Below are positions 7,596 to 49,753 of a DNA stretch of 54,931 bases, piece by piece. Location of the stretch: the IMG/VR virus record IMGVR_UViG_3300010218_000003, positions 66,124 through 121,054 of that record; one strand, written 5' to 3'. The position numbers were made by a program, and so were the translations under genes. The notes under the pieces were generated by a model. The model was not told the DNA's origin, ran no database searches, and was given only the letters and a program-made list of their open reading frames with translations. The DNA comes from a virus. Taxonomy: Duplodnaviria; Heunggongvirae; Uroviricota; Caudoviricetes. Position 1 is the stretch's first letter; each line of letters begins with the position of its first letter.

Positions 7596-10500
7596 TCATC
7601 CCTTGTGGTAGAGAGTGATCTTTCCGTATGAAGATCCAGATCCTACACCGTACATTACTGCGTAGTCACCGGTTCCACTTCCATAAACACCGAATCCTTC
7701 AATTCTATTTGCAGCAGTTGCGTCAACAATATTGTTGTACCAGCTTGATGGAATCGTTACTGTTGCTGCCTCTCCTCTTGATAGAAATACAATGTCATCT
7801 CCGTCTGAACCTTCATTGGTCATACCTCCAACAGGGTCACCAGATGGCTTAGTCTGATAGATATGACCTCTAAGGTTAATTCCTACTCCAGTGTTGTTAC
7901 CATGTGCGGTAGACATTCTCTTGAGGTAGATGGTAGCCTTTGTAGGAGTTCTTACTACACCACCAGCATTTAGAGCATCGTAGATCTTTGTTCCGTAGAA
8001 GTAAAGACCTCTGTGATTGTCATTTCCTGTCCAGTCACCCTGGTAAACATCGTCACCGTCGTTTCTCCACATACCACCATATCCAAGACGGTAGGAGTCT
8101 GAGGAGTTAGCAGTAACAGTTACTGGTGAAGCAAGTAGGTATCGTGAAGCAGATACGTACGTAGAGTGGTTTCCGCTTGAGTCATAAGAAACAACTCGGT
8201 AGTAGATCGTCTTATTCACTGGTAGACCTGAGTGGTCGTACTGCTTTGCAGCGCTTGCACCGCCCGTTACGGTAATAATCTTTCCATCTGTGGTCAGAGT
8301 CTTAGTACCGCTTCCTGCAATTGTTACAGTAGGATATCTGTCGCTTCTCCAGATAACCTTGACACCGGCCGTGTCTGATGCTGATGGATTGGTCCAGTTC
8401 AAACGATATGTACCAGTTGTTGTGCTAGAAGTCAAGGCAGTGATCTTGAATCCGGTTGGCGCGCTAGGAGCCGTCGTGTCTCCAGTTGGAGTTGTAGTTG
8501 TTGCATCTGGAGCCGTGCTGAATGAAAGGCCGTCTAGAAGCAAGAATGTTCTTGTCGTGGCAGTACCATCAGTTGCATACCAGAAACAACCACCTGATGT
8601 GTTAATAACAACAACACAAGAAAGGGCTGATGACACATCATTATAACCCACTGTTGGAAGATAAACAGTCTTTGCTGGTCTGAATCCGGAGGGCAAAGTT
8701 GCAAAATACTGGGATGATGTTGCTCCCTTGATAGCAGTTCCCAGCAATCCTCTTAGATATACATTTCCATTGCTAGTCCAGTATGACGGTGTGTAGGCAC
8801 CAGAAACTACTGTGTAACCATTTGTCAAAGTCATGTTCGCCCATGGAGGAGTTCCGTCAACATCGAGGTGTCCGTAAACACGAACATTTCGACTAGTCAT
8901 CATATCTGCGTCATCATCGGCGTAGCTAGACATAACAAATTGTCCATTGGCATTTGTAAGAACCCAACGACCTGGATATACAGCGTCATTCATTCCATAG
9001 AATCTGATTCCATGTTCTTCCGCACCGGCTGGAGAGAAGTTGGTTAGCTGTGTGCTGGCTCGGTTACCATTTGAATCAGTGTAGTTAACCATTCTGACTG
9101 CACCGGTTCCACCTTCGGACTGTAGAATAATTCCTGGGTAGAATGGCGTATCAGGACGACCACCGACTGTTGCTCCCCATACATTATCTGGAAGATCAAG
9201 CTCAGACTTTGAAACGATGATTCCACCATTAGACTTTACGTAGTCAGACTGGAGCATGATTCTGCTTCCTGATGCTGTACGGAAGTCTGTCCTTGTTCCC
9301 ATTTCAAGCTGCACGTCATCGACATATACAATGTCACCAGTTGCACCATTGAACCATGAGAATGAGAATTCAACAGAGTAGCAGGTATCAGGGATAACAA
9401 TTGGTGAGATGAATGAGAAGTTTACCCATGCTGTATTGGTTACTGCCTTTTCAATGAAATATCCTTGAATCATTGCACCGGCCTCGTCCATGAACTTAAC
9501 AACAAGTCGGACGTTTCTGCCCGTGGCAGTACCCATCATTGCATAACCAGTAACTGTTACCTTCTGTCCGATGAGTTCCTGATTAGTAAGAGTTGATACT
9601 GAATACTTACCAAGAAGCTCAGTTGTTGCCGGGCTGGAAATAGTTCCAGTTGCAGTGATCTTTAGTGAATTGGTGTCCTCTCTACCAACAGTTGTCTCTT
9701 GTGTCAGAGCTGTATTTGCCATTCCAGACCATCCAGTGATGCCGTCTTCGAATGTTGCATCGTAGATGTAGTTTGGATTTCTGTCATAAAGACCTACAAA
9801 TACGCTTCCGTAATTTGCATTCTTGTTGATCAGAGGAGGAGCAATTCTCAAATGTGAAGCGTCGTTCCAGTCACCATCCATTACGTGACCGATCATTCCT
9901 GGAAGCTGCTCATCGACCTCTCCAGTGTAGAATCTGATTGCGTGGTCAAAGATTGATCCCTGAATGTTTTCAACAGAGACAGCCTTTTCACCATTTACAT
10001 CGGTGGTTGCAACCTTTGCTGGAGCACCATTTTCATATGCCTCAATTGAGAACTGGTCAAGCTGAGCAATAGATCCAGCAGCAACATCCCATTCCACATA
10101 AGGAACAAGATAACGAACTGCCTGATTAAGTGACGCTGGATCGTATGGGTCATTGTGCTGGCCTTGAGTTCCCAATACGCCAGTCGTTCCAGCTCCACCA
10201 CGACCACGGACATATCCAGTTACAGTAATCCAGTCAGAAGTTGTAGCTGAGCTACCAGTAGCGACCTGCACCTCAGTATTGTTTTGAACAAGCATATACT
10301 GATTCGCAGCATATCCAGAAAGAAGGCTGTAATCAGTAGGCATTGTGTGCTTCTTTGTAGGAGTAGTCGCATCGTCTACATAATCCCAGTCGATGATGTT
10401 GCTGTTGTTGTCGAATCCGAATAGACCCACCTTGATGCGTGGTGGAGTGGTTACAGTTACATCATCAAACCAACCCTGAATTCCTGCCACCGGGCTTCCT

Positions 10501-13500
10501 GAAATACCGGCCTGAATTTCAAAGCTAGCGGTTACAGCTCCAACAGGAGCCACACCGACAGATGAGAACTGAGACCAAGTTACTCCATCAATTGGAATTA
10601 CCACACCGTTTGTGTCAACTGGAGCAGGCATGTCATTGAAGGTTGTACTAATGGTTGCATTTGCAGCGTCCTTCCACACAATGTTCATCTTTAGATTGTC
10701 TCTGATGATTGTGTTGTTTGGGAGCATTCGAGCTGAGAATGTGTAGCTATATCCTGGCTTTACATTGACAACTGTTCCCATTCCGTATACACCATTTGAG
10801 GAACCAACCTGATCCCATCGGACAGATGCCGTTCCTGTGAACTTCTTGGTGGTGTCTCGCGTAATGCTGTTTGTACCGTAGGCGAACCATCCAGTCGTGT
10901 TTGTTTCAAATCCTGAGTTGCTGTTCAGGGTCGCTACGGAGTACGCACGGATACGCGCGGAGATACGGTAGAGAATGGTTGGGTCGTAAGCAACCTTGGT
11001 AACACCAGTTGCATTTCTCAGAACTAGGCCAGGACCACTGAATTCAAATAGTGATTCAGCAGAGTACGCACCAGGGTCAGTCTTCTGAGTTACAGAACCA
11101 TACGTGAGCCAAAGAGTTCCGTCCTGCATGTAGTCGAACAACTTGGCATAAGTGTTGTTCTGCATTGGTGAGTCAAGCGCAGTTACCTTGATTGAGTTGA
11201 CAGCAAGGTTACGGAATTCAGCATATCCGTCATTACGAATGATCCATCCAGATGTACCAGCAGAATAGTTGGCTGAGTGGATTCGGCTATTTACACCATC
11301 ACCAGTTGGATTAGTTGGGTCACCGACGACAATACGTCCTCGAACTGTGGCATCACCAAATTGGGCACCACCAGTCATGTTAATTGACCATGCTGGCTGC
11401 CCTGAAAGACCATTTGCCAAAGCGGTTGAACGAATTTCACCAGTACGGATGATTCCACCATCAATGGTTGTGTAGCTTGGTGCTCTCCATGGAGATGGAG
11501 TTGTCAAGCTGGTGAGCTTTCGCTCAATCTGCAAACCATCGAAGTACACGGTTCCAGTTGTGTAAAGGCTCAAGTAGGTAAGGAAGCTAGTGTTATTTCC
11601 TGTGTTAAATGTACCTGAGATTCTGGTCCATGTGCTATTTGCCGTAATTGTAGGAGTGGCACCAGGCTGTACGAATGTACCGTCTGCTAGCTTGACTGCA
11701 AGACCGACCACCTTGTTTCCAGAACCAGTAAGATTCAAGACATAGGCAGAGAAGATGTAGTCAGTATTTGGCTCACATAGAGTGTTGTAATCAGTTGATG
11801 TAGCTGCCTGATAAACTCTGGAGAACGTTCCTCCACCGGTCCATGTGTGCTTGAGAGCCTGAGTTCCGAACTTAGAAGCAGGAATTTCAGGAGCAGTTGC
11901 AATTGCCCATGAAGTCGTTCCGCCGTCGTTGAAGGTGAAATGCTTTCCAGTATAGAAAGTTGTCTGGAATTCGTAATCAGCAAACTGAGGAAGAACGATG
12001 TTTGGAGCATCCTGTAGCTGCAATGCGGCAGCCTTGATTGTTCCACCATTGATTTCAAGAGCGGTATTGGATAGCTGGTATCCGCTCGTTCCTGCTACGT
12101 AGTTGGTTGACTTGATTACACCACCAGTATCTACTGTCAGAGCTGACTTGATAAGAAGATCATTGATGATACCAGTACCGGCTGTGATCTTGTTTGCATC
12201 AAGGTTATTGATCTTGGCAGACGTGATCGTAGCATCGGCAATGTTTGTATTGACAATCAGACCGATGGTTACGGCAGCTACCGCAGAAGCAGAAGACTTT
12301 AGTCCTCCACGGTCAACGGCAATGACTCGTACCCACTTACCGGTTGTGGAGTCTGTAACGGCCACAGGGAAAACTTCGGAAACGAATGTGCTACCTGGCT
12401 CGACCTGCAATTGTCCAATTAGTGTGGAGTCGCTTGCGGTGAAGGTAGAAGTCGTTCCTAGGTGTACCTCAAGATAGGCAACGTCAGCTTCAAGACGACC
12501 AGTCGTAGACTTCTGCAATGCGTGATTAACCTGTAGCTGCAAGGAACCTGTTGAAGCAGTAGGAGCCGCAGGAGTAGATGGTGCAGTATTCGCCGCCGTC
12601 GCATTTACAGCAGTTGAGAATGCTGATCTATTTGTGCTTCGGTCAAATGACTGGACTGAGAAATTGTACTGAACACCTACAACTAGACCACCAATTGTGA
12701 TTGAAGTTGTTCCCACTGGAACGTTTACATAGTCGTAAGTCGTTGAAGCGTTCTGCTTGTATCGTACAACATATCCTGCTAGGTCAGTATCAGATGGAGC
12801 AGTCCATGAAACGGCAGCAGTAGCAAATGCAGAATCATTGGTATCAGTTGCCATTGTTGCAGCAAGACCGGTTGGGACACCTGGAGCAGTCGTATCGACA
12901 TCAGTTGGTGAAATTGGGGTCGCTGAAACAGTGACGTAGTTTGAAATGCTATCGAATACGTCACGTGATCTAATCTTGAAGTAGTGGATAACTCCCAGAG
13001 AGCTTGAATCATATACGACGGTGTTTCCGGTTCCGCTGTAGATTCTGTTGCTGGTTGTTGGCGTAAATCCAGATCCAGAAGTGCTCATGTATACGTCATA
13101 GGCAGCAAGGTCATCGATTGACTGAACATCCCAGCGCATACTTACACCGCCCACAATTCCAGCAGCAACTACACCTGTTGGATCAGGTGGTGGTGGATTA
13201 GTGGCGGATACAGTTGAAGATGCGTCTGAGAAGTTTCCTGTGGTGTCCACAGCAAATACGGTAATTGATAGGGTGGCCTGTGGAGTACCGAAGAATGCCT
13301 TATTCGTTTCGAACGGAAGATCGTAGAAGTTGTTAGTTGTCCTAACATCCTTGTAGGTCACACCGCTCTGAATTCTGACAATGTAATGAGAGAAGTCTAG
13401 GAGAGGTGATGCATCTTCGTTCTGAGTTACTGCATCCCACTTACCAGAGAATGCACTTCTATTGACAACCCATGTGACATTCTGCACCGGGGCTGGCGCT

Positions 13501-43244: not shown

Positions 43245-43544
43245 ATGTGGTCAGATTTTCATAAATACAATCAGCTCGTCAGGGATGGAAAAGTCCCGGC
43301 GCTAGTATGCCCAGATTGTCATAACAACTTAATATTGCGCGCAAAGCTTGATGCATCTTCCGACCCATATCTCTGGTGTCCGATCGATGATAAATATATC
43401 AAACCAGGATTAGGGATGCATCATCAAATCAAATCTGCAATCAAGGAGGTGGAGCGTGCTAGAACAGAAGCTAGAAGAGATTCTGGAATGGTTGCTAACT
43501 CTCTCCTTGGCAGTCAAGGAGAACCATTGGAATCTCCGAGGTAA
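43245..43544 (+). CDS. Hypothetical zinc-finger-like protein
   Basis: CPDC...LWCP; TAGACT 6 nt upstream. Confidence 0.6.
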   Translation: MWSDFHKYNQLVRDGKVPALVCPDCHNNLILRAKLDASSDPYLWCPIDDKYIKPGLGMHHQIKSAIKEVERARTEARRDSGMVANSLLGSQGEPLESPR

Positions 43545-43857
43545 GGAATTCTTCTATCTTCACGAGAAGCTAGATGAACTTCATGAAGATATCACCGAAT
43601 ACGCCGATACTGTTGCAGAGCGAGCACGAGCAAGAGAGATGTATCTTGCTCCAAAGGTCGCCTATGAATTCTCTGGTGAATCAGTCTCATATCTGCAAGT
43701 CGTAAACGGAGTGAAGTCTTCTCTTGAGAACTTGACAATGGTTCTGTCAGGTGCTATCTTTAATATTACCGACGACCTCGCTACGCAAGATGTACTCATC
43801 GAAATTAAGCGCGGCGTCGATAAGTGGCTCTGGATGTTTACAGAGTCAGCAAGATAA
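43456..43857 (+). CDS. dps: Dps/ferritin-like protein
   Basis: HWNLRG.EF..LHE.LDE......D.VAER ferroxidase signature; C-terminal K..W. Confidence 0.85.
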   Translation: MLEQKLEEILEWLLTLSLAVKENHWNLRGKEFFYLHEKLDELHEDITEYADTVAERARAREMYLAPKVAYEFSGESVSYLQVVNGVKSSLENLTMVLSGAIFNITDDLATQDVLIEIKRGVDKWLWMFTESAR

Positions 43858-43868
43858 ACAACTTAATA

Positions 43869-43899
43869 GCAGGGCACCCAATCGGGTGCCCTGCCTTTT
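43869..43899 (+). terminator. Terminator after dps
   Basis: GCAGGGCACCC-AATC-GGGTGCCCTGC followed by CTTTT. Confidence 0.8.
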
Positions 43900-43915: not shown

Positions 43916-44800
43916 ATGAAAAAGCCCGACATCCAGCGTCTTATGGATTGGCGGGGCGCAGTTTCATTCGGATCAGTGCTGATCGTTGCTCTCGCTTTGA
44001 GTTGGTGGAGCCTATATTCAATGGCTGTGGAATTCTACGGAGTTCCCAAGCAACTAGCTTTCGGAGTGAGTATTGCGTTCGACGGCGCTGCTTTGTTTGT
44101 TGCTGACCTTGCATCCAAGTACGCTCGAACAGAAGATAGTGGTCTAGCTCCAAAGCTGGCCACTTACGCATTTGTAGGAACATCTGTATACCTGAACGTA
44201 GAGCACGCAGCGCTGCTTAACTACGGGACTCCTGGAAAAGTTCTTTTCGGTGCCCCTCCAGTTATCGCAGGTGTATTGTTTGAATTGTACCTGCGCTTCG
44301 TACACCGTTCTGAGATGCGTTCCAACGGACTGGTTCCCAAGCGTATGCCAGTCTTCGGCAAGGTAAGCTGGATGATCTTCCCAGGGAAGACATTCAAGGG
44401 ATTCAAAAATGTTGTGTTCTTCCGACTCAATGAAGTCGTGACAAACGTGACAGGTGAAAGTTTGTCACGCAAGCGTGACAAGCCAGTGACACCGAAGAAA
44501 ATGTCACGTGACAATCGTGACAAAACAGGTGACAAAAGTGTCACAAAGCCTGTCATGACAAAGAGTGACACGGCTGTCAAGGAAGAAGTGGCTGTCACGC
44601 CTATCGTGACAAAGATGACAGAAATTCCTCGTCGTGACGTGACAGATGACAAGCAAAAGAGCGTGTCACGCCTGGTCAAGGAGCTATGGGATGACGGGAC
44701 CCGTGACAAAGCTGAGCTGCGAAAGCTGATTAGTGACATCAAGGGTCGTGACATTCCTGCCAATACGATCACGGTTGCTCTGTCACGTATGTCACCTTGA
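43916..44800 (+). CDS. DUF2637-like membrane protein with basic C-terminal helical (HTH-like) domain
   Basis: Four N-terminal TM helices with ALSW..L...A and ..FDG motifs; AAGGAG RBS; C-terminal VSRLVKELWDDG.RDKAELRKLI. Confidence 0.7.
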   Translation: MKKPDIQRLMDWRGAVSFGSVLIVALALSWWSLYSMAVEFYGVPKQLAFGVSIAFDGAALFVADLASKYARTEDSGLAPKLATYAFVGTSVYLNVEHAALLNYGTPGKVLFGAPPVIAGVLFELYLRFVHRSEMRSNGLVPKRMPVFGKVSWMIFPGKTFKGFKNVVFFRLNEVVTNVTGESLSRKRDKPVTPKKMSRDNRDKTGDKSVTKPVMTKSDTAVKEEVAVTPIVTKMTEIPRRDVTDDKQKSVSRLVKELWDDGTRDKAELRKLISDIKGRDIPANTITVALSRMSP

Positions 44801-44832
44801 CACGTGACAAAAAAGGTGACACTCTAGTGACA
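44438..44832. repeat. Dense array of GTGACA/TGTCAC hexamers
   Basis: 23 exact copies counted by hand in 395 bp, both orientations, different reading frames, continuing past the stop codon. Confidence 0.9.
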
Positions 44833-44978
44833 TGAACATAGATGACCTCATTGAGGAGTGGCATGACGGTGACAGTCCTCTGCCACTCCATGAGTTCTTG
44901 GGAATGACACTTGAAGAGTACGACCTGTTTGTTAGGTTTGGGACTCTTCCAGAAGGGATAACTGATGGCCGTTCCTAG
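44832..44978 (+). CDS. Small hypothetical protein (48 aa), leaderless
   Basis: MNIDDLIEEWHDGDSPLPLHEFLGMTLEEY...; TTGACA(44797)-N17-CACTCT ends 6 nt upstream. Confidence 0.7.
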   Translation: MNIDDLIEEWHDGDSPLPLHEFLGMTLEEYDLFVRFGTLPEGITDGRS

Positions 44979-45286: not shown

Positions 45287-45542
45287 ACAAGAAGCTTTGG
45301 AAATACTCGACTGCTTCCTCTTTGAGGACATAATAAACAACCGAAACCCGTATGAAGAACGATGCAAGATCACATATGTTGGTGATCATTTCGCAGTTCT
45401 CGACACTGAAACGGGCGAGGTTCATAAATTCAAGATGCAATTTGTAGAGTCCGACCTGGCGGAAGACGAGTGGAATCAAGTCTTCGAGAATCAGGAATGG
45501 GACTGGTATATCAACAGAGAATGGGAAAATGACGAAGATTGA
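45279..45542 (+). CDS. Hypothetical acidic protein
   Basis: 87-aa ORF in operon. Confidence 0.7.
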   Translation: MDRQEALEILDCFLFEDIINNRNPYEERCKITYVGDHFAVLDTETGEVHKFKMQFVESDLAEDEWNQVFENQEWDWYINREWENDED

Positions 45543-46266
45543 CGGTGTAGATTCAATTATCACTTGCCTTGACAAGGGCTATGTACGCCTTGTAGACTCT
45601 ATGGGCAGTGATCTTTCTATCGTCAATGCAGCTCGTGTATCCTATGCAAAGGAGTCAGATGACTTTTCCGACAAGGACGATAGACTACTAAAGTTCCTTG
45701 TCAGGGAAGGTCATCTTTCCCCGTTTAGGCATGCTGCATTGACATTTGAGGTATACGCTCCACTATTCGTGGCGCGTCAGTGGTGGAAGTATGCTGTGGC
45801 ATCTAGCCACCTGGAAGATCAAACTGGATGGAATGAGTCTTCTCGAAGATACATTACCGAGGAGCCGGAATTCCATGTTCCAGATATGACACAGTGGCGT
45901 ACAAAGCCTGCGAATAGCAAGCAAGGAAGCGGCCCGGCGCTAAAGGCTTATTCAGATACATGGCCTTATCATGACGCAGGAGACTTCTGGACAATGACAC
46001 TACAAACCTTCATTAATGAATCTGAGAAGCTTTATAATCAGGCTCTAGAAGCAGGTATTGCACCAGAACAGGCAAGGCTATTCCTTCCTGCATATGGAAT
46101 GTTCGTCCGGTGGCGTTGGACAACCTCTCTGGCTGCCGTAGCTCATTTCCTTGCAGAAAGACTAGAGCATGATGCGCAGTACGAGATTCAGCAGTATGCT
46201 AAGGCTGTCAATGATCTGACAAGCAATATCTTCCCAAAGACATTGGAGGCACTAAATGCAAAATGA
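45529..46266 (+). CDS. thyX: FAD-dependent thymidylate synthase
   Basis: NAARVSY, GHLSPFRH, FVARQWWKY, NESSRRY, EQAR..LP, AQYEI motifs. Confidence 0.92.
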   Translation: MTKIDGVDSIITCLDKGYVRLVDSMGSDLSIVNAARVSYAKESDDFSDKDDRLLKFLVREGHLSPFRHAALTFEVYAPLFVARQWWKYAVASSHLEDQTGWNESSRRYITEEPEFHVPDMTQWRTKPANSKQGSGPALKAYSDTWPYHDAGDFWTMTLQTFINESEKLYNQALEAGIAPEQARLFLPAYGMFVRWRWTTSLAAVAHFLAERLEHDAQYEIQQYAKAVNDLTSNIFPKTLEALNAK

Positions 46267-47726: not shown

Positions 47727-47927
47727 GTGCATGGTGCATGGCCTGTGTATACTGGTACTACACCAAGACGGAAGGGACTGATCAACTTGACCACTCTCGA
47801 TCTTCTGGAGCGGGCAGTATCTGAGGGGTGGGTATCCGTATCTACCCTGTCCACTACGGTACAGGATGACATGCGTACCGTGGACATGGACGAGGACGCC
47901 TACCCGCACGTATCCGAACTGGCGTAA
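47727..47927 (+). CDS. Hypothetical protein (start uncertain)
   Basis: 66-aa ORF followed by a terminator hairpin. Confidence 0.45.
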   Translation: MHGAWPVYTGTTPRRKGLINLTTLDLLERAVSEGWVSVSTLSTTVQDDMRTVDMDEDAYPHVSELA

Positions 47928-47931
47928 CTAA

Positions 47932-47961
47932 ATAGGGGGCTATCTACGGGTAGCCCCCTAT
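47932..47961 (+). terminator. Hairpin, terminator-like
   Basis: ATAGGGGGCTA-8nt-TAGCCCCCTAT perfect 11-bp stem; weak T tract. Confidence 0.55.
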
Positions 47962-47981
47962 ATGGGCAGAAAGGGAAAGCA

Positions 47982-48194
47982 ATGTTTCGGAAAAAGGCAA
48001 AAAACGTTCTGACGCATTCGCTTACCCTCAAGCTCGAAAAGAACGGCCTCTTTTCGGAAACGGGCGTAATTTCTTCGGGAAATCTCGAAATTCTTCTTCG
48101 GAAGTACAATGAAGGCGGATTTCGCCCGGTGGAAGCAAAACATTCAACTTATTGCCACTGTGGCACTGGAAAGGGCGAAACCTATGAATGCTGA
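47982..48194 (+). CDS. Hypothetical protein
   Basis: 70 aa; AAAGGGA RBS. Confidence 0.55.
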   Translation: MFRKKAKNVLTHSLTLKLEKNGLFSETGVISSGNLEILLRKYNEGGFRPVEAKHSTYCHCGTGKGETYEC

Positions 48195-48372
48195 CCGTAT
48201 GCAAACCCTTCTTGAGGGAATGCGTGATCTGGCAGCAAAGGCACAACTGATGCCCATCACAAACGAAACCATGGCCGCTGGGATGGCTCTGGCGGAGATG
48301 TTCGAGGAATTCGACCTTCTGATTCTGGAAAACCGAACGATTCCTACCGAATGGGAACGATTCCGTGGCTGA
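48184..48372 (+). CDS. Hypothetical protein
   Basis: MNADRM... overlapping neighbours. Confidence 0.6.
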   Translation: MNADRMQTLLEGMRDLAAKAQLMPITNETMAAGMALAEMFEEFDLLILENRTIPTEWERFRG

Positions 48373-48589
48373 GCTGTCCTTGAACCAATTCATTCTCGAT
48401 ACCATTGCGGAATGGATTCGAGACAACAAGGGTCAGCGTTATGGGCAATTCGTATTCAATCGAGTTGCTGAGCACCGGCCCGAAATCGGAAATGCCCTCA
48501 CGGGCACAATCCATGATCCTTTCTACGCAAACGACAACAACGATCCTCGAATTCACCGTTTTTGGGCCAAAGTGGACGAACTCTGGTGA
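48365..48589 (+). CDS. Hypothetical protein
   Basis: 74 aa; R.GQ..FN and DPFY motifs common in small phage proteins. Confidence 0.7.
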   Translation: MAELSLNQFILDTIAEWIRDNKGQRYGQFVFNRVAEHRPEIGNALTGTIHDPFYANDNNDPRIHRFWAKVDELW

Positions 48590-48788
48590 ATCTGAATAAA
48601 TTCGCTTAGATTTTCACCCCTATGTTTCTTAGGTATATGCACGAAAAACCTTCGAATCGTAGGGGTGAATTTCTGACTAAAAAGTTAGCCGCCCCGGCTA
48701 GATGACTAAAAATCTGTGTAGACATCTAGAGACTAAAAAATCGGCGTAGGTGTTGCGCTACTGGCAATCCGACTGCTAGACTTCATAC

Positions 48789-48989
48789 ATGAAGCGAGGA
48801 CAGATCTTCCAGCCGAAGAACTTCGATGACGGATGCAGGACTCAGATCGTAGACGTGATCGGTGATCACAACGTGGTGATCATCCACACCGACGAAGGCT
48901 GCACCGTGACCCTTCTGCATGACATGGCAATCGAGAAGTACATGAAGCCCGGTGACAAGATCGAGTGCGTCTGTGGGGAGATGTTCTGA
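48789..48989 (+). CDS. Hypothetical protein, leaderless
   Basis: ATG 6 nt after TAGACT. Confidence 0.7.
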   Translation: MKRGQIFQPKNFDDGCRTQIVDVIGDHNVVIIHTDEGCTVTLLHDMAIEKYMKPGDKIECVCGEMF

Positions 48990-49147
48990 TGTTCTGCATG
49001 CACCAGTGGACTAAGTGGATTCTGGTCACGGCTCACATGGACAGCCCTTTGATGGGTTGGATCAAGGGTAAGCCTGTCGAGTGGACACAGCCCATGCAGG
49101 CTCGCAAGTGCGTGAAGTGCAACAAGATCCAGACGAGGAGCGTCTAA
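48989..49147 (+). CDS. Small Cys/His protein
   Basis: MFCMHQW...RKCVKC; TGATG overlap. Confidence 0.7.
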   Translation: MFCMHQWTKWILVTAHMDSPLMGWIKGKPVEWTQPMQARKCVKCNKIQTRSV

Positions 49148-49377
49148 TGTTCATGATCTCTGAGGGTGACGTGTTCGTGGATGTCAACCCTGACATTCTT
49201 CACAAGGAAACTTTTCTGTACGTCGAGGTCGTGGACGACTGGATCAAGGCTGGGCATCACAACCCTCGTGAGTGCCTGCGTGCTGTCTACCCTCGCACTA
49301 CCCTTGAGCGTGCATTCAAGAAGGTCGAACGTGTACCTAACGAGTGTGCGTGTGGCGGTAAGCTTTTCTGGGAGTGA
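49147..49377 (+). CDS. Hypothetical protein
   Basis: MFMISEG...CACGG; TAATG overlap. Confidence 0.7.
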   Translation: MFMISEGDVFVDVNPDILHKETFLYVEVVDDWIKAGHHNPRECLRAVYPRTTLERAFKKVERVPNECACGGKLFWE

Positions 49378-49456
49378 TCTCAGGCCCTTCGGGGCCGCCC
49401 CGGCTAAATCTCAAAAGTCTTGCCACCGGCCCTAATTACGTGCTAGACTCATCCCT

Positions 49457-49753
49457 ATGAAGACGCCGAAGGTTCGTAAGCCCAAGCCGTTCTACGCCAA
49501 CATCTACCTCGAAGATCTTGCGTGTGGTGGTCCGCAGGAAGGTGGTTGGTACTACAACTACCGTGAGCCGTGTGTGTCCGTCAAGGTTCGGTCCCGTCGT
49601 GAGGCTGAGACTGTTCTCAAGCGACTGACCAAGAAGCGTTACAGCAACAACGGGCGTAAGGCCATTTGGTCCGTCAACAGCACCGGTCAGTACCTTGACC
49701 GTATCGAGCGTAAGCCTGCCGAGCGTGAGAGTGACTGGTCTCCCTGGGAGTAA
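49457..49753 (+). CDS. Hypothetical protein, leaderless
   Basis: Single-gene cassette; GGPQEGGWYY. Confidence 0.75.
   Translation: MKTPKVRKPKPFYANIYLEDLACGGPQEGGWYYNYREPCVSVKVRSRREAETVLKRLTKKRYSNNGRKAIWSVNSTGQYLDRIERKPAERESDWSPWE

Follow-up and report, generated by a model that had tools for sequence, protein, structure and literature searches.

A DUF2637 membrane protein gene of a Streptomyces phage carries an array of GTGACA sites that may dock the phage DNA at the membrane

The replication origin of phage lambda lies in gene O, with its iterons inside the initiator's own gene, and G38P of phage SPP1 binds oriL, located in gene 38, together with a second, non-coding site, oriR. Protein p16.7 of phage phi29 is a membrane protein whose cytoplasmic DNA-binding domain attaches phage DNA to the membrane. 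Among Streptomyces plasmids, pIJ101 encodes SpdA2, a soluble protein of 135 residues that influences plasmid stability and whose target, a 12-bp palindrome (sps), is repeated in its own gene (PMC4170104). SpdB2 of pSVH1 is a four-helix membrane protein with TraB and SpdA as interaction partners and a non-specific affinity for double-stranded DNA; actinophage homologues have been noted (PMC4447253). Here, we describe a gene encoding a DUF2637 membrane protein with an array of GTGACA sites in its 3' part, found in a 54,931-nucleotide stretch of phage DNA (hereafter the window) that corresponds to positions 66124-121054 of the 121,054-base assembly IMGVR_UViG_3300010218_000003. The array (array 1) probably consists of cis-acting docking sites to which the product of the gene would bind, holding the DNA at the membrane. 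The elements concerned are the following.

43916-44800, + strand: DUF2637 membrane protein gene, 294 amino acids, with a predicted C-terminal helix-turn-helix (HTH)-like domain (open reading frame (ORF), Pfam, and PHROG)
44438-44832, both strands: array 1, 23 exact GTGACA/TGTCAC sites in both orientations (hexamer count)
44502-44513, both strands: 12-bp palindrome TGTCACGTGACA, whose inner 10 bp are common with the pIJ101 sps, CGTCACGTGACG
44869-44874, + strand: a 24th, outlying GTGACA site inside the next small ORF (hexamer count)

The window DNA is 92% identical to Streptomyces phage Karimac and to other BE-cluster phages (Stanwilliamsviridae, Boydwoodruffvirinae), and its orientation is the reverse complement of the deposited BE phage records. 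BE phages are siphoviruses of about 130 kb with terminal repeats of 11-12 kb and are regarded as virulent (PMC10690885). An exact recount agreed with the 23 hexamers at 44438-44832 and the one at 44869 reported in an earlier reading of the letters alone (the sequence-only reading), and both palindromes that it had named, TGTCACGTGACA (44502) and TGTCATGACA (44551), were found. At the background rate of the genome outside both GTGACA clusters (64 sites in about 120 kb), 0.21 sites are expected per 395 bp (Poisson P of about 1e-38), and the remaining 54.5 kb of the window contains 28. The consensus of array 1 is cGTGACAa. Its densest part, 44438-44544, holds 10 sites, about one per 10.7 bp, and the xTGACA pentamer count in 44430-44880 reaches 30 against 1.7 expected. 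The GTGACA orientation falls in frames 0 and 1 and the TGTCAC orientation in frames 1 and 2; three sites (44804, 44816, and 44827) are located past the stop codon. In the 121-kb genome only two clusters of sites are present, array 1 and a second one described below (array 2). A genome-wide avoidance or enrichment of the word was considered and rejected: outside the two clusters, 64 sites were observed versus 71 expected under a fourth-order Markov model, GTGACA has the median rank among hexamers of the same composition, and its strand bias across the genome merely tracks gene direction.

Array 1 is real, strongly selected, and conserved. In 2000 trials, we replaced the codons of residues 170-294 by synonymous ones drawn according to the codon usage of the phage and obtained 2.6±1.5 sites (maximum 8) versus 20 observed in the coding part; shuffling the order of the codons gave 1.3±1.1. 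These two nulls rule out a protein-level repeat or a codon-bias artefact, and the first bears out the proposal of the sequence-only reading that selection acts on the DNA rather than on the protein. In a codon alignment of the BE phages, the sites are often non-orthologous. Their position, strand, and frame vary, but their number remains high, and selection therefore acts on site density.

The homologues of this gene carry their own, different repeats, a possibility that the sequence-only reading had raised. Every member of the Boydwoodruffvirinae tested has 11-30 G[T/G]GACA sites in the 3' half of the gene, among them the BE phages Karimac, Tomas, NootNoot, Mildred21, Coruscant, and EGole, and so do metagenomic relatives down to 52-57% protein identity. 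The satellites MiniFlayer and Mulchroom encode homologues with 28-33% identity, whose genes harbor arrays of other words at the same position: TGCGAA in MiniFlayer (16 sites in the gene) and ACGACA in Mulchroom (17 sites, in all three frames). Clustered GTGACA is absent from both (5 scattered sites in MiniFlayer, 2 in Mulchroom). Chromosomal Streptomyces homologues, about 50% identical, correspond to integrated Mulchroom-like satellites with weaker (A/G)(A/G)GACA arrays, a word also found in L049 and L050, and further elements of this type were seen. The word of the 93-kb element NZ_CP108353 is TGAGCGC(G), with 21-34 sites in all frames and several 12-bp palindromes, and that of the linear plasmid pRL2 is GCGGACA, with 9-11 sites. 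Under the recoding test, MiniFlayer has 16 sites versus 1.0, Mulchroom 17 versus 4.2, and plasmid NZ_CP108353 21 versus 2.4. The integrated satellites encode an integrase, HTH regulators, Lsr2, the DUF2637 protein, terminase, portal, scaffold, and capsid. Those in L013, L015, and L017 measure about 13 kb and lie beside a glutamine synthetase gene, with about 1 kb without called genes on each side of the DUF2637 gene.

Two observations of other repeats were made along the way. The distant DUF2637 gene of Hiyaa (L011 1890-2252) contains five CCGGATC or GACCCCGGA-like words, which resemble the recognition sequence of plasmid TraB and may only reflect a DPG peptide repeat. In MiniFlayer (L003), gene 13 (11911-13017) carries five (GTGT)CTGTCC words and one inverted within 75 bp (12337-12410). 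Its 368-residue product has no Pfam match, and its sole PHROG match is marginal and of unknown function; the cluster is possibly a second protein-plus-site module or the origin of the satellite. A scan of the genome contigs with narrow peptide patterns matched one locus.

The protein encoded by the array-bearing gene belongs to a recognizable family. Residues 23-165 match Pfam DUF2637 (PF10935; E 1.2e-6, 28.9 bits versus a cut-off of 22.8), and the protein matches phrog_10376 (E 2e-117); in Karimac and relatives, the gene is annotated as 'DUF2637 domain-containing protein / membrane protein'. A full-length AlphaFold2 model was built on 33 homologues, and its top clusters in AlphaFold DB are all DUF2637. 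The ORF starts with the ATG at 43916 and ends with the stop codon at 44798-44800. Its parts, according to the model and the homologue alignment, are listed below.

43931-44323, + strand: four long membrane helices forming the DUF2637 core, residues 6-136 (AlphaFold2)
44354-44452, + strand: conserved membrane-adjacent segment, residues 147-179 (homologue alignment and model)
44453-44638, + strand: linker, residues 180-241, disordered and hypervariable, its sequence written for the most part by the hexamers of the array (predicted local distance difference test (pLDDT) 28-34)
44663-44791, + strand: predicted C-terminal three-helix HTH-like domain, residues 250-292 (AlphaFold2)

The membrane helices (6-40, 45-69, 77-100, and 105-136; pLDDT about 65-84) are modeled as a four-helix bundle. 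They are followed by two membrane-adjacent helices, 147-154 and 156-179, and P145, F147, G148, P156, and R170 are invariant in this region of the homologue alignment. Segment 147-179 is a candidate partner-binding surface. The linker varies freely in length and sequence among homologues and is dominated by V, T, D, K, S, and R. Modeled alone as a 65-residue construct, the tail reaches a pLDDT of about 87, with helices at 21-31, 36-47, and 53-63. The recognition helix would span approximately residues 282-292. The nearest folds of the tail are all weak: the N-terminal HTH of the G20c small terminase has a Z score of 5.7, and ArgR, KorB, Lrp/AsnC, and PadR have Z scores of 4-4.6, while a Foldseek search with the C-terminal domain returned nothing below E 1. 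We describe the tail as HTH-like, on the basis of its predicted fold, and assign it to no named family. The N-terminus, loop 2, and the segment following helix 4 contain basic residues, and this charge distribution suggests by the positive-inside rule that both termini, including the tail, are cytoplasmic. The four-helix, DUF2637-like protein with an HTH-like tail that the sequence-only reading had described is thus recovered by the Pfam match, the four model helices, and the helical tail.

Array 1 covers exactly the linker- and HTH-coding part of this gene. Furthermore, in the tail alignment, a third helix with T-x-x-x-x-x-S/N/Q-R goes with a GACA core in the word, and MiniFlayer and NZ_CP108353 have different third helices and unrelated words. 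Over about eight lineages, compared without statistics, the word appears to follow the predicted recognition helix, which agrees with the tail being the reader. Taken together, this comparative sequence evidence supports well the proposal that the protein docks at its own gene.

The word itself is partly shared with a plasmid system. In pIJ101, sps reads CGTCACGTGACG and is present twice (L026 8140 and 8173). It is identical to the phage palindrome TGTCACGTGACA over the inner 10 bp, and the phage hexamer is an sps half-site, an analogy with SpdA2 closer than the sequence-only reading had claimed. We searched the phage genome and the satellites by tblastn and motif scan for an SpdA2-like protein or its N-terminal zinc-finger-type region of about 38 amino acids and found none; an SpdA2-like reader encoded by the phage or the satellites was rejected on this ground. 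The common word may be due to chance (about 1 in 500 for the 5-mer core), to common descent of the sites, or to a shared third reader.

Another possible reader is a host factor, with the array acting as a decoy or recruitment pad bound by an OmpR-family regulator, for example GlnR or MtrA, or by the SpdA of resident plasmids. OmpR-family regulators have GTnAC-type half-sites, which the GTGAC core resembles; the core is also identical to the sps half-site of SpdA2 (PMC4170104). However, elements that infect a common host genus have unrelated words at the corresponding position of the homologous gene, which fits a private reader rather than one host factor, and the orientation and spacing of the sites are irregular, unlike the tandem sites of response regulators. 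We regard a host factor as scarcely probable, the least so of the explanations considered here.

The second cluster of sites lies outside the window, as does the gene for a putative DNA translocase.

Assembly 45474-45608 (L002 5475-5609): array 2, 12 exact GTGACA/TGTCAC sites in 135 bp plus degenerate ones, non-coding
Assembly 47766-49577 (L002 7767-9578), minus strand: FtsK/TraB-like translocase gene, 603 amino acids

Array 2, for which 0.07 sites would be expected, is 65 kb away from array 1; it precedes the first base of the window by 20.5 kb and comes just after a gene encoding a DUF3307 membrane protein. A GC-rich and then an AT-rich stretch come next. Like the dense part of array 1, it has about one site per helical turn. 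Karimac has 11 sites at this place. The translocase gene is 2.2 kb from array 2 and present in 91 of 91 BE phage records. Its product has two membrane helices, Walker motifs, and a winged-helix-like C-terminal tail, and matches phrog_12531 'FtsK/SpoIIIE-like'; the match to the NCBIfam plasmid TraB is weak (E 1.4e-7, far below the cut-off). The DUF2637 gene is 65 kb from it, and hence not in a spread operon beside traB. Wakanda and BillNye encode a DUF2637 homologue and have neither an in-gene array nor the translocase. The system cannot be the one-gene system imagined in the sequence-only reading, given the second array 65 kb away and the translocase gene found in all BE phages.

We propose that the four-helix DUF2637 domain would sit in the cytoplasmic membrane and that the disordered linker, about 60 residues long, would carry the small HTH-like domain into the cytoplasm, where each domain would read one 6-bp site as a monomer. 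Monomeric reading on long flexible tethers would explain that orientation, spacing, and frame are free and that only density is conserved. The at least 20 sites in 400 bp of array 1 and the approximately 12 of array 2 would gather many copies of the protein, and avidity would pin the phage DNA to the membrane. The sites may have been placed in the linker-coding part because the linker tolerates almost any amino acid sequence; as such a tolerant writing space, it would be composed of the amino acids that the word encodes in its various frames. With the sites inside the gene, gene and site travel as one compact module, each satellite or plasmid having its private word.

Docking might serve to hand the DNA to the FtsK/TraB-like translocase in the membrane, a role that has been suggested for the Spd proteins of conjugative plasmids in Streptomyces. 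We favor this purpose because of the gene contexts of the DUF2637 family: the DUF2637 genes of pRL2, pPR2, NZ_CP108353, and the metagenomic sequence L027 lie beside FtsK/TraD-class ATPase genes, the ATPase assignments being weak. Should the protein indeed bind the array, we consider such a Spd-like hand-over, suggested by analogy, quite conceivable, if short of an even chance. The translocase would then move DNA between hyphal compartments, and the satellites, which must stay with their helper and therefore have a reason to follow it between compartments, would use the helper's pump via their own adaptor. We infer binding by the gene's own product, its monomeric mode, the attachment of the DNA to the membrane, and the connection with the translocase. 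In its boldest form, which we think rather unlikely, the proposal is that BE phages carry a complete conjugation-like DNA-spreading apparatus, comprising a pump, an adaptor fusing SpdB2-like and SpdA-like roles, and two cis-acting arrays, that would pump genomes through hyphal cross-walls without an extracellular step and into which satellites would plug a private adaptor-array pair. Plasmid-like segregation, the purpose considered in the sequence-only reading, is unlikely in phages reported as virulent (PMC10690885).

Several points weigh against docking by the gene's own product and the hand-over that might follow. Array 2 is strong in Karimac-like phages only; it is weak in NootNoot, reduced to a mixed GTGACA/GGGACA patch, and missing in Tomas. 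Loccivirinae homologues keep a similar C-terminal domain without an in-gene array, and the distant DUF2637 proteins of L027, L028, and pPR2 also lack one. A scan with k = 5-8, covering the DUF2637 genes rather than whole genomes, detected no in-gene array in these three, nor in Wakanda, BillNye, or Hiyaa. The fold matches of the C-terminal domain are generic (best Z 5.7), and the helix-to-word correspondence comes from the eight or so lineages mentioned above. The core of the site, GTCAC/GTGAC, is the same as that of sps, which is bound by the unrelated zinc-finger-type SpdA2, so that another reader is possible; the winged-helix-like C-terminal tail of the translocase itself could be this reader. 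The predicted complex between residues 1-270 of the FtsK-like protein and residues 1-182 of the DUF2637 protein scored 0.00 in a run without controls, which speaks neither for nor against an interaction. Finally, we know of no demonstration that phage DNA moves between hyphal compartments.

If the translocase tail read the sites, the arrays would be clt-like loading sites and the DUF2637 gene merely their host. Plasmid TraB recognizes clusters of short repeats (clt) near traB. We observed GACCGGAC seven times at 9684-9858 of pPR2 (L032), downstream of its TraB-like ATPase gene, a disposition resembling a classical clt/TRS (TraB recognition sequence) cluster. BE phages, pRL2, and NZ_CP108353 have both an array and a translocase, Wakanda and BillNye have neither, and the distance between array 2 and the translocase gene is short. 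However, satellites without a translocase carry different words that track their own DUF2637 tail, whereas a satellite using a GTGACA-reading helper pump would need GTGACA, which it does not have in clustered form. In addition, the main array never lies outside the DUF2637 gene, which in BE phages is far from the translocase gene. Loading sites of this kind are, in our view, quite improbable.

The main rival of docking at the membrane is that the arrays are replication origins, or an origin and an enhancer, and that the DUF2637 protein is an origin-binding organizer starting or anchoring membrane-associated replication. Binding by the gene's own product is common to both explanations; satellites would here carry their own initiator-origin pair and borrow the replisome of the helper. 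Iterons inside an initiator gene are classical, as in lambda O and SPP1 G38P. The arrays of the phage number exactly two, one within a gene and the other non-coding; after the latter come a GC-rich stretch and, about 175 bp off, a block of 73% AT that also resembles a promoter region. Private specificity is typical of the Rep-ori pairs of satellites. No replication genes have been recognized in the satellites, which share just two non-structural genes, that of the membrane protein being one (PMC10690885). Conversely, the DUF2637 protein resembles no initiator, helicase loader, or primase, and we did not find an AT-rich unwinding element next to array 1, where nothing stands out within 1.5 kb. 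The plasmid homologues are located in a transfer/spread operon beside a TraB-like ATPase gene, and replication depends on a separate DUF927 gene. Gene 13 of MiniFlayer, with its own in-gene repeats, could be the initiator of that satellite, and the absence of array 2 in Tomas does not fit an origin either. GC skew, tried as an origin marker and rejected, tracks transcription only and gives no origin signal. An origin organizer is thus unlikely in our judgment, although it remains the strongest competitor of self-docking.

The immediate neighbors of the array-bearing gene are as follows.

43456-43857, + strand: Dps/ferritin-like 'DNA binding protein' gene (Pfam Ferritin 2.2e-10, phrog_3636, synteny)
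43869-43894, + strand: strong terminator-like hairpin of 11 pairs, 9 of them G-C, followed by a T run
44832-44978, + strand: small downstream ORF, 48 amino acids (phrog_12828, E 3e-11), unannotated in Karimac

The Dps/ferritin-like gene is always directly upstream of the DUF2637 gene in BE phages and is absent from the satellites. The hairpin ends 22 nucleotides before the DUF2637 start codon, and expression of the gene may depend on read-through or on regulation of the hairpin. A good promoter match, TTGACA-N17-TATCTT, is present at 43732-43760, inside the Dps-like gene and upstream of the hairpin. Downstream, array 1 runs through the 3' end of the DUF2637 gene and a 31-bp gap to the start codon of the 48-residue ORF (44832), which overlaps its last site. 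This disposition is compatible with a mainly regulatory array, acting by autorepression through a transcription roadblock and by control of the downstream early genes, with no role in localizing DNA; the sequence-only reading had proposed such regulation as a side effect. However, regulation has no need for 20-30 sites, for a membrane anchor, or for a second array 65 kb off behind an unrelated gene. Moreover, the promoter TTGACA-N17-CACTCT that had been proposed for the next gene is not supported: CACTCT agrees with the -10 hexamer at 2 of 6 positions, and a consensus scan did not return it. A mainly regulatory role is therefore very improbable.

If the DUF2637 protein reads its own gene, it would define a compact "protein plus address label" module in Streptomyces phages, satellites, and plasmids, each with a private address. 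DUF2637 is a family widespread in actinobacteria, and this would be the first lead on its function, as well as a lead on the sole non-structural gene, besides the HNH endonuclease, that is common to Streptomyces satellites and their helpers. It would also tie lytic phages to the poorly understood TraB/Spd machinery moving double-stranded DNA through the mycelium, and the older idea that phage DNA spreads inside hyphae would become directly testable. Finally, it would mean that dozens of DNA sites can be written into the coding sequence of a disordered linker, which is relevant to annotation and to recoding experiments. A full-text literature search for DUF2637 gave only unrelated papers, and we found no description of these arrays; the paper on the satellites mentions only 'a predicted membrane protein' (PMC10690885).

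The known systems resemble this locus in different respects. Like the DUF2637 protein as we picture it, p16.7 of phi29 is a membrane protein with a cytoplasmic DNA-binding domain, but it has one membrane helix and no homology to the DUF2637 protein, binds DNA without sequence specificity, and is not known to have a cognate array. Lambda O and SPP1 G38P share with it the repeated sites in the linker-coding part of their own gene and, for SPP1, a second non-coding copy; however, they are soluble initiators with 4-6 ordered iterons by an AT-rich region, whereas the phage gene encodes a membrane protein and carries 20-30 randomly oriented sites. According to its published description, SpdB2 is comparable in being an integral membrane protein with four helices, encoded by a mobile element from Streptomyces, that binds DNA and has an FtsK-like translocase as partner. 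Its binding is non-specific and no site array has been described for it, whereas the phage DUF2637 gene has an array and a translocase gene 65 kb off. An AlphaFold DB cluster named 'Protein spdB' matches the DUF2637 model (E 1.3e-4). Membership of pIJ101 SpdB in DUF2637 was rejected: it has no Pfam family, and hhalign against the DUF2637 homologue alignment gave a probability of 0.9%. As pIJ101 SpdB is not detectably DUF2637, we do not file the phage protein as a member of the SpdB2 family. With SpdA2, no sequence similarity was found. SpdA2 has an N-terminal zinc-finger-type domain and 2-3 palindromes; the phage protein, by contrast, is anchored in the membrane, its HTH-like domain is C-terminal, and most of the 23 sites are isolated half-sites. 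A single 12-bp palindrome, at 44502, has its inner 10 bp in common with sps, and the 22 remaining sites are single half-sites. Different plasmids have a conserved sps word, but in the DUF2637 family the word varies from element to element. Nevertheless, both are found in Streptomyces mobile elements and have specific sites inside their own coding region, in a part encoding low-complexity protein, which in SpdA2 is an SRDD/E motif.

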